The notes below the pieces were generated by a model that worked only from the letters and a program-made list of their open reading frames with translations, was not told where the DNA came from and made no database searches. This document shows positions 1 through 19,908 of a DNA stretch of 64,000 nt, piece by piece. This DNA is from Clostridia bacterium. Lineage in GTDB: Bacteria > Bacillota > Clostridia > TANB77 > CAG-465. How positions within the stretch are numbered: the stretch's first letter is position 1; each line of letters opens with the position of its first letter. The stretch lies in NCBI GenBank assembly GCA_045611765.1, contig JAZKXT010000004.1, forward strand, positions 68,883-132,882, given 5' to 3'. The position numbers were made by a program, and so were the translations under genes.

Positions 1-259
1 TATCGTAGTATCTAATTCTATAGCGGATACAAATATAAATATTGAAAAATTGTTCAATAAAAACTATTCTACTAAGAAAAATCCTTCTGGTTTTGGATTA
101 TATGAAGTTAGGAAATTCTTAAACAAGAGACCTCAAAGCTACATAGTAACAACTATAAATAAAGAAGATAAATTGTTTACACAAACTATTACTATTGATT
201 CAATTGCAAGTAAAACCAATGACGAAAATATCAATAAAATGCAAAGTACAGTGGCATAA
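1..259 (+). CDS. sensor histidine kinase, C-terminal GHKL ATPase fragment (5' end outside window); possibly agr/vir-type receptor kinase
   Basis: Frame 2 is open from position 2 to the stop at 257-259. G-box-like GFGLYEVRKF motif near the C-terminus. Converges on the agrBD cassette. Confidence 0.55.
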   Translation, partial: IVVSNSIADTNINIEKLFNKNYSTKKNPSGFGLYEVRKFLNKRPQSYIVTTINKEDKLFTQTITIDSIASKTNDENINKMQSTVA

Positions 260-278
260 GTCACTGTACTTTCTTTTG
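244..278 (+). terminator. hairpin (AGTACAGTG / CACTGTACT) spanning the kinase stop codon, followed by a T-rich tract
   Basis: 9-bp stem seen directly, then TTCTTTTGG. Confidence 0.4.
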
Positions 279-349: not shown

Positions 350-460
350 TTATTTTATTAAGCTTGTTGGAGCTTTTGGCGCGTGAAAGAACCATAAAGC
401 TGAAGATGTTGTAGTAGATTTAGCGTATGCTTCTACTATTTTTGCTATTAATTTTTTCAT
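350..460 (-). CDS. agrD: AgrD-like autoinducing-peptide precursor (36 aa: MKKLIAKIVEAYAKSTTTSSALWFFHAPKAPTSLIK)
   Basis: ATG at 460 with GGAGG RBS 8 nt upstream. Sits immediately downstream of agrB. Resembles clostridial AgrD (TSACLWFTHQPEEPKSL type) but has Ala where the ring-forming Cys is expected. The ORF track merged it into a longer 69-aa reading frame. Confidence 0.55.
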   Translation of the reverse strand: MKKLIAKIVEAYAKSTTTSSALWFFHAPKAPTSLIK

Positions 461-521
461 ATATTTTTCCTCCTTGTTTAAAATATTTATTAAAAGTATC
501 TCCATGGCCGATACCGTTAAC

Positions 522-1139
522 CTAAAGCAATATGTCAGATATATATGTTTCATAACCATATTGTGTCCTAAACAAATTGTACAGTGTTCTTGTTGTCATG
601 ATTCCTGTTAAAAATACTGTATATATTATAAGATTCTGTAGTATACTATCGTTTATTAAGAATATGCTAATTATATAAATTATGTTTAACATTATAATCG
701 CTTTAACCTTTAACGTCTTCCTTATTTTCATATTAACTTTTGGAATCTCTGGAACATCAGCAGGAACATAAACAAAAATAGTATATAACGAAAATATATA
801 AACTATTAGATAAATTCCATATTTAGTAATACCACTAAATATTAGCAGCTTTGATGCATATGTAATCACTAAATAAAAAACCGCCGAACAGATAAAGCAT
901 CCCCAGTTTGTTTTGGCATGAACTCCACCAGTTATTGTTTTATATAACATTATAACTACTGTTATAATCAATATTTCTTTAACTATATCTAAAAGCAACG
1001 CTATTACTATAATTCCTAGAATTTTTGGTATATCCTCTACTATTCTAGTTATTCCAAATAATAAAATTTCTCGCTCTTCATCGCTTTGGTTATTACTAGA
1101 TATTAAATCTAAAAATTTACAACATATACTATTAATCAA
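522..1139 (-). CDS. agrB: accessory gene regulator B (AgrD-processing membrane peptidase)
   Basis: About 205 aa polytopic membrane protein with the TGGVHAKT motif typical of AgrB. Located directly upstream of the agrD-like ORF. Confidence 0.75.
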   Translation of the reverse strand: MINSICCKFLDLISSNNQSDEEREILLFGITRIVEDIPKILGIIVIALLLDIVKEILIITVVIMLYKTITGGVHAKTNWGCFICSAVFYLVITYASKLLIFSGITKYGIYLIVYIFSLYTIFVYVPADVPEIPKVNMKIRKTLKVKAIIMLNIIYIISIFLINDSILQNLIIYTVFLTGIMTTRTLYNLFRTQYGYETYISDILL

Positions 1140-1326
1140 TTATTCTGTACCTCTGTATATATTTTATATTAATTTTCACCATAAAATATTAAATTGCTAC
1201 AAAAGATTAAAATTATCCTATGAAAATATCCGAATAATTCTTGTGTAAATAAACATATATTTCACACAAGATTTAAACATTTCACTATGTGTTTTCTAAT
1301 TTTTCCCTAGATGCGATAATTGCATA

Positions 1327-1366
1327 AAATTAGACCACTAGTCTATATATACTAGTGGTCTAATTT
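1327..1366. terminator. perfect inverted repeat with 16-bp arms (AAATTAGACCACTAGT ... ACTAGTGGTCTAATTT), loop CTATATAT; probable bidirectional terminator or operator
   Basis: Seen directly. Lies 12 nt downstream of the carD-like stop on the minus strand, between the carD-like and agrB genes. Confidence 0.45.
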
Positions 1367-1377
1367 ATTATATAATT

Positions 1378-1893
1378 CTAAGCTAATTCAACTGTACCTA
1401 AATCATATGAGAATTTGATTTTCTCTTCTATTTCTTTATCTACCGCCATGTGGTCCATGCCTTGTGCAAGCATAAGTTCGCTTATTAATATTTCCTTTGC
1501 TGAAGAAAGCATTTTCTTTTCAGCTGTAGAAAGTCCTCTTTCCATGTGTCTATGTGATAGGTCTCTTACAACATCTGCTACTTCTAATATATCTCCTGTT
1601 TTTATTTTATCTACATTAGATTTATATCTTCTACTCCAGTTGTTTTCATAAATATATTCTGCCTTTGGCTTTTCTAAAACCGCAAATACACTTGGCGCTA
1701 CAGAAGCATTTGACACTTCTCTTACACCTATATCTGTTGCCGTTTCAGTTGGAACCATAAGTTTCATATCTCCAACTGGCATTTTTATTATATAATATTC
1801 TGCTGTATCCCCAAACATTTCTTTTTCTTCTATTGACTCTATTGTACCTGCTCCATGCATAGGATACACTACTTTATCTCCAATACTAAACAT
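1378..1893 (-). CDS. CarD/CdnL-family transcriptional regulator (RNA-polymerase-interacting domain)
   Basis: MFSIGDKVVYPMHGAGTIESIEEKE N-terminus is the typical CarD_CdnL_TRCF domain. Confidence 0.7.
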   Translation of the reverse strand: MFSIGDKVVYPMHGAGTIESIEEKEMFGDTAEYYIIKMPVGDMKLMVPTETATDIGVREVSNASVAPSVFAVLEKPKAEYIYENNWSRRYKSNVDKIKTGDILEVADVVRDLSHRHMERGLSTAEKKMLSSAKEILISELMLAQGMDHMAVDKEIEEKIKFSYDLGTVELA

Positions 1894-2039: not shown

Positions 2040-3392
2040 CTATCCATTTGTTACCAAATCTTTGATATTATTCACTTTAACTAGTTTCACCTCTTGTGGT
2101 ATTTCAAGCTTTTCCAAGCCATATCTAGTTGTATATATAGTTTTATATCCTAATTTTATAGCCTCTTTAATCCTCTTTTCAATATTTACTACTCGCCTAA
2201 TCTCTCCTGTTAATGCAAGTTCGCCAATAAATACAGAATCATTATTTAAAGCCTTCCCTTTATAACTAGATATAATCGCCATTGCAACAGCTAAATCAGC
2301 TGCAGGTTCTGTTATTTTTATTCCGCCAACAACATTGATATATACATCTTGTGTACCCAAACTTATCCCACAAACTTTTTCAATTACCGCTAACAAAAGA
2401 TTAAGTCTGTTTACATCAATTCCCGTTGTAACTCTTCTTGGAATATTGTAATATGAATGAGTTGTTAATGCTTGTAGCTCGAGTAATAGTGTTGATGTTC
2501 CTTCCAATATAGCCGTTGTGACTGTTCCCGGTTGATTCTTTTCTCTTGTTAAAAACATATCCGACATATTTGTAACTTCAACCATTCCTTTTTCAGCCAT
2601 TTCAAATATTCCTATTTCGTTAGTAGAACCAAATCTATTCTTTACCCCTCTAACAATTCTATGAGATATAAAGCGTTCGCCCTCAATATATAGCACAACA
2701 TCTACCATATGTTCTAAAAGTCTTGGACCAGCTATAATACCATCTTTTGTTACATGTCCTATAACAATCGTAATTATTCCAAGCTTCTTAGAGATATTCA
2801 TAAGGCGCGCTGTAACTTCCCTTACCTGAGATACACTTCCTGGCACAGAAGAAATAGACTCGTCATACATTGTCTGAATAGAATCTATAATACAAACTCT
2901 AGGTTTGTTTTCCGTTATTTTAGCTTCAATCTCATCTATATCCGTTTCACCATAAAAATATATCTTATCATTATCTATTCCTAGTCTATCCGCTCTAAGC
3001 TTTACTTGAAGTTCTGACTCTTCTCCTGAAACATATAGCACATCTCCGTGCGCAGTTAGCTTATCCGAAATTTGTAAAACCAACGTAGATTTTCCTATAC
3101 CAGGTTCGCCACCTAAAAGTATCAAAGAACCATCAACAATTCCTCCGCCTAATACTCTGTCCAGTTCACTAAATCCACTCGTGAAACGTTCCTTCTTTAC
3201 TATTTGTATATCTTTCAGTTTTTTCATTTCACTCTTTGGAATATTAGATACTACTTTTTTTCCTTGTGCTTTTTCTTTAATCTTTTCTTCTACAAATGTG
3301 TTCCACTGATTACAGCCAGGACATTTACCTAACCACTTAGCTGACTCATATCCACATTCTTTACAAAAGAATACTACTTTTTCTTTTCCCAT
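2040..3392 (-). CDS. radA: DNA repair protein RadA/Sms
   Basis: N-terminal C4 zinc ribbon (CKECGY...CPGC), Walker A GEPGIGKST, Lon-like C-terminal domain; 450 aa. Confidence 0.9.
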   Translation of the reverse strand: MGKEKVVFFCKECGYESAKWLGKCPGCNQWNTFVEEKIKEKAQGKKVVSNIPKSEMKKLKDIQIVKKERFTSGFSELDRVLGGGIVDGSLILLGGEPGIGKSTLVLQISDKLTAHGDVLYVSGEESELQVKLRADRLGIDNDKIYFYGETDIDEIEAKITENKPRVCIIDSIQTMYDESISSVPGSVSQVREVTARLMNISKKLGIITIVIGHVTKDGIIAGPRLLEHMVDVVLYIEGERFISHRIVRGVKNRFGSTNEIGIFEMAEKGMVEVTNMSDMFLTREKNQPGTVTTAILEGTSTLLLELQALTTHSYYNIPRRVTTGIDVNRLNLLLAVIEKVCGISLGTQDVYINVVGGIKITEPAADLAVAMAIISSYKGKALNNDSVFIGELALTGEIRRVVNIEKRIKEAIKLGYKTIYTTRYGLEKLEIPQEVKLVKVNNIKDLVTNG

Positions 3393-3425: not shown

Positions 3426-4373
3426 TTACAACATATCTTTTTTATTTAGCCACATGGCAACTATTATTGTTATAATTGCTGTTATTCCTAACACGCCATA
3501 AAAACCATACACTCCTGTGTTAAATGGGAACTCTACATTCATGCCCATTATTGAGGCGATTAATGTTGGTATAGATATTATAAGAGTAATAGATGTTAAT
3601 AGTTTCATCACGTTATTTAAATTATTTGATACAACTGTTCCAAATATGTCCGTCATTCCATTTAATATTTCAGAATAAGTTGCTGCCATTTCCATAGCTT
3701 GTCTATTCTCTATAACTGCATCTTCGAGAATGTCTTCATCCTCTTCATATAGTTTTATAAATTTACCACGTCTTAATCTTTCCATAACCGCCTGGTTTGT
3801 TTTAAGTGCTGTGTTAAAGAATATCATAGACTTTTGGTAGTTTATAAGTTTAAGTAATTCTTGATTACTCATAGTTTTGGTTATATTATCTTCAAACACT
3901 TCCACATCTCTGCTAATATATGTTAAGTATTTTAAAAATTCTACTGAAGTTATATATATCAACTGAAATGCTAGTCTAGATTTTTTATACGTAGCAATCT
4001 CGCCTACTATCGTTTTCTTTCTGCTTAACATATCTATTAAAGAAAACTTTTCTGAGGATATAGTTATTATATAATCATCTCTAACTACAAGAATACCTAA
4101 AGGCATCGTTGTATATACCTTACCTCTTTTATTCTTTTCTGTAATAGGCATGTTAATAGATATGAGTACTTGGTCCTCTTCTGTATCTATGTGTGATGTT
4201 TCCTCTTCGTCTAGAGCATACTTTAAAAGCGTCTCATCTACTCCAGTTTCTTTTATGACATAAGCCATTTCTTTTTCTGTTGGCTTTACCAGATCTATCC
4301 AACAACCTTTTTCAATTCCTTCTAACTCTTTTAAATTTTTATCTTGTTCTGTATTTTTTAATATTTTTATCAT
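3426..4373 (-). CDS. CorA-family Mg2+/Co2+ transporter
   Basis: C-terminal two TM helices with the GMN signature (IMGMNVEFP); 315 aa. Confidence 0.8.
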   Translation of the reverse strand: MIKILKNTEQDKNLKELEGIEKGCWIDLVKPTEKEMAYVIKETGVDETLLKYALDEEETSHIDTEEDQVLISINMPITEKNKRGKVYTTMPLGILVVRDDYIITISSEKFSLIDMLSRKKTIVGEIATYKKSRLAFQLIYITSVEFLKYLTYISRDVEVFEDNITKTMSNQELLKLINYQKSMIFFNTALKTNQAVMERLRRGKFIKLYEEDEDILEDAVIENRQAMEMAATYSEILNGMTDIFGTVVSNNLNNVMKLLTSITLIISIPTLIASIMGMNVEFPFNTGVYGFYGVLGITAIITIIVAMWLNKKDML

Positions 4374-4817: not shown

Positions 4818-5474
4818 TTACTCTCTTTTAAAAAGATCTTTAGACACTCCACATACCGGACATTGTTCCGGTGGATTATCTCCATAATGAACATAACCGC
4901 ATATTGAACATATCCATTTTGTTTTACTTTGTTCTATATTTTCTTCAGTAGTATTCTCATTTTTAGCTTTAAATTCATCTGTATTAATTAAATTTTCAAT
5001 TTCACTCGCTACTTGTTCTGCTTTATCTAAATCAAGTTCGCCCATATCTTTTATTTCCATACCAGTTAATTCGCTAAACTTTTTAAGTAAAGCTCTTTCT
5101 TCCGGAAATAAAGTATCCATTCTCAACTGTCCATTAACAAAAAATTTATTAAATGTTTTTGATGAGGTGTTTCTGTATATTTCATCTGCTACTATTGGAA
5201 ATTCTTTTTCAGAAAACAATCCTTCGCCAACCAAAATTACATTTTTAGTTTTTAATTGTTCTTTTACTCTATTTAAATATAACTTAGTTAATTGTGCCGT
5301 ATAAGGTCCCCTAAAATTAAATACTAATATTATATTGTCTATATCATTTAAATTTTCAGCTTCAAATGGAGTATCTACATTAATACATTTGCAGTTCAAT
5401 TGGTTAGAAATTACTTGTGCAACTTTTTTAGCACTACCATGAAAAGTTTCATATGTTACTATAGTGTTATTCAT
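4818..5474 (-). CDS. flavodoxin-like domain protein with C-terminal rubredoxin-type zinc ribbon
   Basis: C-terminal CSICGY...CPVCG (CxxC-x13-CxxC rubredoxin-like knuckles). The N-terminal flavodoxin-fold call is weak. Confidence 0.45.
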   Translation of the reverse strand: MNNTIVTYETFHGSAKKVAQVISNQLNCKCINVDTPFEAENLNDIDNIILVFNFRGPYTAQLTKLYLNRVKEQLKTKNVILVGEGLFSEKEFPIVADEIYRNTSSKTFNKFFVNGQLRMDTLFPEERALLKKFSELTGMEIKDMGELDLDKAEQVASEIENLINTDEFKAKNENTTEENIEQSKTKWICSICGYVHYGDNPPEQCPVCGVSKDLFKRE

Positions 5475-7231: not shown

Positions 7232-7307
7232 TGGAGCTAATAGGCGGAATCGAACCGCCGACCTACAGGTTACGAATCTGTTGCTCTACCTACTGAGCTA
7301 TATTAGC
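7232..7307 (-). tRNA. tRNA-Thr (anticodon CGT)
   Basis: Hand-folded cloverleaf: acceptor GCTAATA/TATTAGC, D-arm GCTC-AGTAGGTA-GAGC, anticodon loop TTCGTAA, T-loop TTCGATT, CCA encoded. One A-C mismatch in the anticodon stem. Confidence 0.7.
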
Positions 7308-7372
7308 GTATTGTGGTTGTTTCAAATGTAGCTATATTATATCATAAAGCTTGTAAATGTAAAGAAAATTGT

Positions 7373-7400
7373 TCAAAAAAATCACTTCTAATGAAGTGAC
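7373..7400 (-). terminator. terminator of the tRNA operon (GTCACTTC-atta-GAAGTGAT + U6)
   Basis: Seen directly, immediately 3' of tRNA-Gly on the minus strand. Confidence 0.55.
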
Positions 7401-7402
7401 GT

Positions 7403-7478
7403 TGGAGCGGGAAACGGGGCCCAAACCCGCGACCTTCGCGTTGGCAACGCGACGCTCTATCAACTGAGCTATTCCCGC
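7403..7478 (-). tRNA. tRNA-Gly (anticodon GCC) with non-canonical D-loop (AGTTGATA, A at position 19) and T-loop (TTTGGGC instead of TTCGAAT)
   Basis: Acceptor GCGGGAA/TTCCCGC, anticodon arm TCGCG-TTGCCAA-CGCGA, discriminator T, CCA encoded. The G19-C56 tertiary pair is replaced by the covarying A19-U56, and A58 is replaced by G. Confidence 0.6.
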
Positions 7479-7497
7479 AAATATCAATTTTTTTGCT

Positions 7498-7573
<76 letters not shown>

Positions 7574-7584
7574 AGATAAAAAAA

Positions 7585-7661
7585 TGGCGACCTGGATGGG
7601 ACTCGAACCCACGACCTCCGCCGTGACAGGGCGGCGTTCTAACCAACTGAACTACCAGGCC
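7585..7661 (-). tRNA. tRNA-Asp (anticodon GTC)
   Basis: GGCCTGGTAGTTCAGTTGGTTAGAAC...CTGTCAC...GGTTCGAGTCC...GCCA. Canonical. Confidence 0.85.
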
Positions 7662-7669
7662 AAAAAAAG

Positions 7670-7745
7670 TGGTGGGCACAATAGGGCTCGAACCTATGAC
7701 CCCCTGCTTGTAAGGCAGATGCTCTCCCAACTGAGCTATGCGCCC
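7670..7745 (-). tRNA. tRNA-Val (anticodon TAC)
   Basis: GGGCGCATAGCTCAGTTGGGAGAGC...CTTACAA...GGTTCGAGCC...CCA. Canonical. Confidence 0.85.
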
Positions 7746-19834: not shown

Positions 19835-19908
19835 GGCGCCATAGCCAAGTGGTAAGGCACGAGTCTGCAAAACTCTGATCCCCGGTTCAAATCCGGGTGG
19901 CGCCTCCA
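19835..19908 (+). tRNA. tRNA-Cys (anticodon GCA)
   Basis: GGCGCCATAGCCAAGTGGTAAGGC...CTGCAAA...GGTTCAAATCC...GGCGCCTCCA. TATAAT at 19821-19826 upstream. Confidence 0.85.

Follow-up and report, generated by a model that had tools for sequence, protein, structure and literature searches.

The agr locus at the left window edge

The stretch of DNA analyzed here (the window) comprises 64,000 nucleotides (nt) of contig JAZKXT010000004.1 (GenBank assembly GCA_045611765.1) from an uncultured, AT-rich gut Clostridia bacterium, and it carries at its left edge an apparently functional agr locus, made up of the peptidase gene agrB and the signal precursor gene agrD, which converge on the 3' end of a histidine kinase gene. 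Judging from orthologous loci, the window starts inside agrC and the architecture of the locus is probably that of agrB-agrD facing agrC-agrA. We consider it likely that the locus constitutes one half of a complete four-gene agr-type system, the signal of which is closed by Ser20 of AgrD as a six-residue lactone. The elements of the locus are listed below, with protein lengths given in amino acids (aa).

2..259, plus strand: 3' end of an agrC-type histidine kinase gene (last 85 codons and stop codon; the remainder lies beyond the left window edge).
243..272, both strands: hairpin in the gap where the two operons converge, extending over the stop codon of the kinase gene; likely terminator.
350..460 including the stop codon, minus strand: agrD, encoding a 36-aa precursor (MKKLIAKIVEAYAKSTTTSSALWFFHAPKAPTSLIK) with no Cys; proposed parts are leader M1-S19, core S20-F25 (SALWFF) and follower H26-K36 (HAPKAPTSLIK).
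473..469, minus strand: agrD ribosome-binding site GGAGG, 8 nt before the ATG, read from the sequence.
522..1139, minus strand: agrB, 205 aa with a TTG start, encoding a membrane cysteine peptidase/cyclase with catalytic His74 and Cys81.
1260..1285, minus strand: putative binding site of a LytTR (AgrA-type) regulator, a direct repeat GTGAAA-N14-GTGAAA at a distance of 121 nt upstream of where agrB starts.
1330..1363, minus strand: hairpin and U-run after carD (-22.1 kcal/mol, z = -7.3); likely carD terminator.

The original prediction, made from the sequence of the window, held that AgrB is intact, and this is confirmed by a match of 111 bits to Pfam PF04647 that spans nearly the whole model (positions 3-182 of 185) and by the retention of His74 and Cys81. 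Homology searching recovered 185 AgrB relatives, nearly all of them 205 aa long and aligned with 100% coverage, and almost all from assemblies of uncultured gut or rumen Clostridia. Across an alignment of 27 homologues, His74 and Cys81 show no variation, and the two residues line up with His77 and Cys84 of Staphylococcus aureus AgrB, the catalytic pair of that enzyme. The AgrB-family peptidase with a His...Cys dyad that is expected of an agr system is present at 522..1139. No relative of AgrB was found in the PDB with either the single sequence or a 27-sequence profile, the sole match being a weak one to YidC that we attribute to chance.

Just downstream of agrB, after a gap of 61 nt, lies a small gene with the organization typical of agrD, namely a leader, a core and a Pro-containing follower, and its placement 3' of agrB is kept in 17 loci. 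The peptide scores 22.2 bits against NCBIfam TIGR04223 ('AgrD family cyclic lactone autoinducer peptide'), for which the curated cut-off is 19; a Pfam scan of the peptide matched no family. The sequence and the TIGR04223 score agree with the earlier description of a 36-aa AgrD-like peptide that follows agrB, is preceded by a GGAGG ribosome-binding site and contains no Cys. A longer, 69-aa in-frame version of agrD was considered and rejected, since a stop codon precedes the conserved ATG by six codons in two related loci (L001 and L002). Small open reading frames (ORFs) are also seen on the strand opposite agrD, at 427-525 and 474-611.

LytTR regulators such as AgrA bind direct repeats that come in pairs, spaced at a period of about 21 bp, and the GTGAAA repeat upstream of agrB fits a putative AgrA box, or autoinduction site. 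The exact GTGAAA-N14-GTGAAA arrangement has a single match in the 64 kb window, where 0.11 are expected, and a third, imperfect copy (GGGAAA) begins at 1307. Eight related loci contain GTGAAA-N14-16-GTGAAA once each, 120-150 nt upstream of agrB. When one mismatch is allowed, the window yields six matches against 2.7 expected, among which only those upstream of agrB look meaningful. Since the hairpin at 1330..1363 probably ends carD, agrBD should have its own promoter. On the opposite side, a terminator scan with folding gives the hairpin at 243..272 an energy of -18.2 kcal/mol (z = -4.5) on the plus strand and of -14.8 kcal/mol (z = -4.3) on the minus strand.

The ring position of AgrD

The ring position was located by comparing AgrD peptides from 7 genome loci, 8 metagenome loci, 14 close protein-database peptides and 32 short profile-search peptides (loci and peptides are designated below by L and P numbers, respectively). 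Close homologues were collected with a 42-aa extended query, and the profile search covered 1.84 billion representative proteins, producing 37 matches from which the 32 short peptides were retrieved. The ring Cys of about 35 related AgrDs aligns with Ser20 of the window peptide, and not with Ala21. In nine loci (L004, L007 and L009-L015) the core Cys lies six residues before the follower His, and the same spacing is found in P0137-P0139, P0142, P0144-P0147, P0149 and P0153. At the position of Ser20, 26 of the 32 short profile peptides have Cys (6 or 7 residues before His or Pro), five have Ser and one has Gly. The Ser-bearing peptides (P0140, P0143, P0162, P0165 and P0170) are representatives from beyond the close clade, and the exchange of Cys and Ser is therefore recurrent. 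The follower of distant members conforms to H-x-P-K-x-P, begun by His.

Within the close clade, the residues of the core behave very differently from one another. Ser20 does not change across the 14 AgrDs of the clade, and Phe25 is also unchanged throughout, as expected of the acyl-donor residue. Position 24 is F, Y or L, and positions 21-22 are hypervariable (AL, VV, MM, ML, VF, II, FV, SI, IA, IV, FM, MA, CA and CV), so that the AgrD alignments place the variable core sites at positions 21, 22 and 24. At position 21, 12 of the 14 close-clade peptides have a residue other than Cys (11 aliphatic or aromatic, 1 Ser), and this position therefore cannot be the general nucleophile. Ser20 stands, as a potential nucleophile, at a fixed distance from the follower, as expected of the Cys or Ser in an agr core, and it is homologous to the ring Cys of related AgrDs, as expected of the Ser in a Ser-closed lactone. 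The original prediction had instead assigned the thiolactone Cys to position 21 and described it as replaced by Ala. That assignment stems from an ungapped alignment to Clostridium perfringens AgrD and must be revised, as the Cys of the relatives falls at Ser20, six residues before His.

The history of the substitution was traced on a neighbor-joining tree of the cognate AgrB proteins. Ser-type loci fall in one clade, comprising the window with L001-L003 on one side and L005 with L006 on the other; the Cys-type locus L004 nests beside L005 and L006, and every outgroup is Cys-type. The Ser20 codon is TCA or TCT in the window, L001-L003, L016 and L017, and AGT or AGC in L005, L006 and L018, while the ring Cys of L004 is encoded by TGT. 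No single-base route connects TCN and AGY serine codons, and each of them is one change away from TGY, so the simplest reading of the codons is that two independent Cys-to-Ser substitutions took place from a Cys ancestor. Such a double switch is the pattern expected if only Cys or Ser is tolerated at the ring position. Moreover, TCA is two changes away from any Cys codon, which rules out a sequencing error as the origin of Ser20. Codon differences between the agrD of the window and those of its relatives number, per comparison, 8-13 synonymous and 3-7 non-synonymous.

The profile search also returned peptides that depart from the layout of the close clade. One AgrD subfamily has its Cys seven residues before His, mostly as ...KSTNTAC followed by six residues and HQPKMPASLIKKD (HQPKMP type), and comprises P0141, P0148, P0150-P0151, P0154-P0155, P0157-P0161, P0164, P0166-P0167 and P0172-P0173. 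If the same cleavage rule applies, seven-residue rings are predicted for this NTAC subfamily, where a 2025 primer lists rings of five and six residues for clostridia. P0168, a predicted protein of 96 aa, begins like an AgrD in which Gly takes the ring position (NTAGGSWFCIHQPKMP), fused in-frame to the C-terminal end of a GHKL kinase, and may be what a deletion or fusion has left of an agrD/agrC pair in convergent arrangement, unless it arose in assembly. Five further matches (P0152, P0156, P0163, P0169 and P0171) are proteins of 310-569 aa with several AgrD-profile matches each, all to the leader segment only (profile positions 6-23), and may reflect chance similarity of repetitive proteins rather than kinship with AgrD.

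The convergent kinase and the predicted signal

A histidine-kinase 3' end does converge on agrBD from the left edge, as had been predicted (2..259, plus strand). Against HATPase_c_5, a GHKL domain, the fragment scores 20.5 bits, just below the cut-off of 22, and its weak NCBIfam matches include S. aureus AgrC. It is 67% identical to residues 395-462 of the kinase of L003, which is likewise convergent and lies downstream of agrD. The L003 kinase has 462 aa, a long hydrophobic N-terminal half, an H-box reading FKHDMGN and a HATPase_c_5 match of 48.7 bits. Among NCBIfam models it agrees best with that of S. aureus AgrC, at 94 bits over positions 4-407 of 414; the equivalog cut-off of that model is 500, and a score below it is expected for a distant AgrC relative. 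Upstream of this kinase, in the same operon, lies a 224-aa regulator with Response_reg and LytTR domains.

The pair formed by a convergent kinase of about 460 aa and a LytTR regulator of 224 aa is present in 11 loci (L001-L005, L007, L009, L012, L014, L015 and L017; L005 and L008 share one contig), and kinase fragments running to contig ends are found in L010, L011, L013 and L016. L006 alone lacks the pair. The cassette had been described as having no adjacent agrCA, a claim that does not survive this comparison: the converging kinase is of the AgrC type and a LytTR regulator precedes its orthologues. The locus also departs from the orphan agrBD of C. perfringens, characterized by a five-residue ring and no known adjacent agrCA, in that its predicted nucleophile stands six residues before His and an AgrC-type kinase converges on it. 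A tblastn search of the window found no second LytTR regulator or AgrC-like kinase.

Among L001, L002, L003 and L017, the sensor region of the kinase retains 55-64% identity, compared with 91-97% in DHp and 75-85% in the catalytic domain, and the AgrD cores of these loci read SVVWFF, SMMWYF, SMLWFF and SCVWFF, respectively. Fast sensor divergence across differing AgrD cores is an agr-style pattern, and the many core variants, taken together with the fast-diverging sensor, look like signal specificity groups. On the far side of agrCA, L017 carries yabP, yqfD, ybeY and a DAGK_prokar gene, and in relatives the agr locus adjoins the sporulation genes yabP and yqfD. Sporulation is under agr control in several clostridia (PMC8251862), and the link between the agr locus and sporulation through this neighborhood is only suggestive.

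By analogy with characterized agr systems, the N-terminal helix of AgrD would bring the precursor to AgrB at the membrane, where Cys81 and His74 would cleave between Phe25 and His26 and free the follower HAPKAPTSLIK. The Ser20 hydroxyl would then resolve the acyl-enzyme into the six-residue lactone Ser-Ala-Leu-Trp-Phe-Phe, and the leader would be taken off by a peptidase. Detection of the signal would fall to the convergent kinase of the AgrC type with its polytopic sensor domain, and the kinase would phosphorylate the LytTR regulator, which would in turn bind the GTGAAA repeats upstream of agrB and establish an autoinduction loop.

We place the cleavage at F25|H26 because it would put Pro31 at +6, paralleling the AgrD of Clostridium thermocellum, whose conserved Pro35 comes to lie at +6 after cleavage at F29|Y30 (PMC5322536). 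Liquid chromatography-tandem mass spectrometry detected the Ser25 pentapeptide of that AgrD, which the authors took to be a lactone (PMC5322536). Further Ser-closed signals are RIPT[STGFF] of Staphylococcus pseudintermedius and the gelatinase biosynthesis-activating pheromone (GBAP) of Enterococcus faecalis (PMC12312760), a review table gives AgrD2 of Clostridioides difficile as NSA[SSWVA] (PMC12312760), and [CVLVTL] of Clostridium acetobutylicum is an established six-residue, tail-free ring (PMC8251862, PMC12312760). For the window peptide, the predicted [M+H]+ is 752.3766 for cyclic SALWFF, 839.4086 with a one-Ser tail, 940.4563 with a Thr-Ser tail, 605.3082 for cyclic SALWF and 770.3872 for the linear hexapeptide.

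A ring of a different size strikes us as improbable. Five-residue rings occur in most characterized signals (PMC12312760), and cleavage at F24|F25 would give one here (SALWF), but it is the F25|H26 site that keeps Pro at +6 as in C. thermocellum (PMC5322536), and it is Phe25 that stays unchanged in the close clade. A seven-residue ring could be closed through Ser19, which is present in the window peptide and would correspond in spacing to the Cys seven residues before His in the related NTAC subfamily; this residue is, however, not conserved as a nucleophile, being Ser, Thr or Ala among relatives.

The final chemical form of a six-residue, Ser20-closed signal invites a serious alternative, which we regard as possible, if somewhat doubtful. 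Were the signal tail-free, the free alpha-amine of Ser20 could attack the ester and, through an O-to-N acyl shift, convert the lactone into homodetic, head-to-tail cyclo(SALWFF). Molloy et al. describe five clostridial signals, the six-residue one of C. acetobutylicum among them, all of which are tail-free and pass from thiolactone to lactam, and they leave undecided the fate of tail-free Ser-lactones such as that of Hungateiclostridium thermocellum (PMC8251862); the Ser peptide of this organism, C. thermocellum, is tail-free (PMC5322536). On the other hand, the conserved TTT[ST]S stretch that precedes the core could give a tail, as in RIPT[STGFF] of S. pseudintermedius (PMC12312760), and the leader cleavage site is not predictable, nor do lactone and lactam differ in mass.

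Several observations weigh against a complete agr system with a uniformly Ser20-closed ring. P0123 (SSCAWFF) and P0130 (SSCVWFF; L017, 1161-1271) carry Cys21 beside Ser20 and could make a five-residue thiolactone like C. perfringens [CLWFT], or else a six-residue lactone, so that members of the clade may differ in where their nucleophile sits. A further candidate for this role is Ser19, at a position taken by Ser, Thr or Ala in relatives. The N-terminal part of the window's own agrC, as well as its agrA, lies off the left edge, and we infer their presence from orthologous loci; L006 has agrBD without kinase and regulator, so loss does occur. Between the end of the GTGAAA repeat and the best -10-like element downstream of it, which stands beside the ribosome-binding site, there are about 90 nt. 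Finally, the cleavage site, the lactone chemistry, the tail length and the ring size are all predicted by analogy. As to the loci just named, L017, the source of a Cys21 AgrD, has a full convergent agrCA partner, and at L006 (6001-7400; CAYZTN010000013), where the AgrD core is the same as that of L005, unrelated plus-strand ORFs follow agrBD in what looks like an orphan cassette.

The presence of Cys at position 21 in P0123 and P0130 makes the C. perfringens alignment defensible in the case of these two peptides, and together with the lack of agrCA in L006 it lends some substance to the view that a ring Cys opposite Ala21 has been lost, so that the cassette would be an orphan in decay, with a peptide that is linear, unprocessed or without function. 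We nevertheless hold this to be very unlikely for the window. Position 21 is hypervariable and mostly aliphatic, whereas the invariant Ser20 occupies the place of the Cys of nine distant loci and of 26 of the 32 short peptides; orthologues of AgrB, AgrC and AgrA are intact across the clade; and synonymous changes in agrD outnumber non-synonymous ones, with the kinase sensor diverging fastest across loci with different cores. The original prediction had left the choice between a Ser-lactone and a linear or unprocessed signal. The first option gains support from the family alignment, from the exchange of Cys and Ser at one fixed position and from published precedent, while the second is disfavored by the agrD codon changes, which outside positions 21, 22 and 24 are mostly synonymous, the conserved AgrB dyad, the conservation of AgrC and AgrA in relatives and the fast divergence of the sensor.

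Outside the agr locus, the following genes were recorded in the window, in which an Rfam scan detected tRNAs only and no rRNA.

1378-1893, minus strand: carD, upstream of agrB, with Pfam CarD domains.
2040-3392, minus strand: radA, read by eye.
3426-4373, minus strand: corA-type gene, read by eye.
4818-5474, minus strand: 218-aa ORF with two C-terminal CxxC pairs (WICSICGYVHYGDNPPEQCPVCG), seemingly a larger protein that ends in a tail of the rubredoxin type.
7232-7745, minus strand: five-tRNA cluster (Thr-CGT, Gly-GCC, Phe-GAA, Asp-GTC, Val-TAC).
19835-19908: tRNA-Cys, single gene.
60698-60784: tRNA-Leu, single gene.

Comparison with known agr systems

Each of the three main features of the locus, a Ser nucleophile, a six-residue ring and split agrBD and agrCA operons, has published precedent, and the locus leaves the understanding of agr signalling unchanged. 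Mildly new are the double Cys-to-Ser switch and, possibly, a novel six-residue Ser-closed ring; the core sequences of the close-clade AgrDs were not found in a full-text literature search of the searchable library. We put forward, tentatively, that a clade of uncultured gut Clostridia swapped Cys for Ser on two independent occasions (TGY to TCY and TGY to AGY), after which the pair of residues that follows the nucleophile diversified alongside the kinase sensor into many signal types, the signal being an undescribed six-residue, Ser-closed one. The locus gives a clean evolutionary case, in which the ring position takes nothing but Cys or Ser and has apparently changed between them repeatedly, and it extends the short roster of agr systems with a serine-closed signal by one lineage of uncultured gut Clostridia. 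If the proposal is true and the signal is tail-free, an O-to-N shift would yield a homodetic cyclic hexapeptide and thereby answer the question raised by Molloy et al. on tail-free Ser lactones.

With C. perfringens [CLWFT] the window peptide shares the aromatic LWF core and the H-x-P-x-x-P follower, although the Cys of the former stands five residues before His and the nucleophile here six before. The agrBD cassette of C. perfringens is not known to have an adjacent agrCA, whereas an AgrC-type kinase converges on the window locus. The C. perfringens signal is tail-free (PMC8251862, PMC12312760).

The system of C. acetobutylicum resembles the window locus as a clostridial agr with agrBD and agrCA in separate operons, and as one with a six-residue macrocycle (predicted in our case), its nucleophile being placed six residues ahead of the residue, aromatic or His, at which the follower opens (PMC12312760, PMC8251862). 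Its nucleophile is Cys, where Ser is found here, and the core sequences are unrelated. The C. thermocellum (Hungateiclostridium) AgrD, Clo1313_2818, has in common with the window peptide its origin in Clostridia, cyclization through Ser (predicted in our case), a follower that starts with an aromatic residue and a Pro at +6 (PMC5322536). It differs in its five-residue ring, against the six residues predicted here, and in its surroundings, since agrB, agrC and agrA are all missing from the neighborhood of that agrD, and here agrB adjoins agrD and agrC converges on it.

Among Bacilli, the systems of S. pseudintermedius/intermedius and of E. faecalis (GBAP, encoded by fsrBDCA) share with the window locus the use of Ser for Cys and a lactone made by an AgrB-family enzyme and sensed by an AgrC-family kinase, the lactone and its sensing being predicted in our case (PMC12312760), but they are organized as a single agrBDCA or fsrBDCA operon and have ring sizes of 5 and 9. 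The agrB2D2C2A2 locus of C. difficile is, as the one described here would be, a clostridial four-gene locus with Ser at the ring position of AgrD (PMC12312760); it differs in its five-residue ring, as listed, and in its gene order, and its sequence is not closely related.

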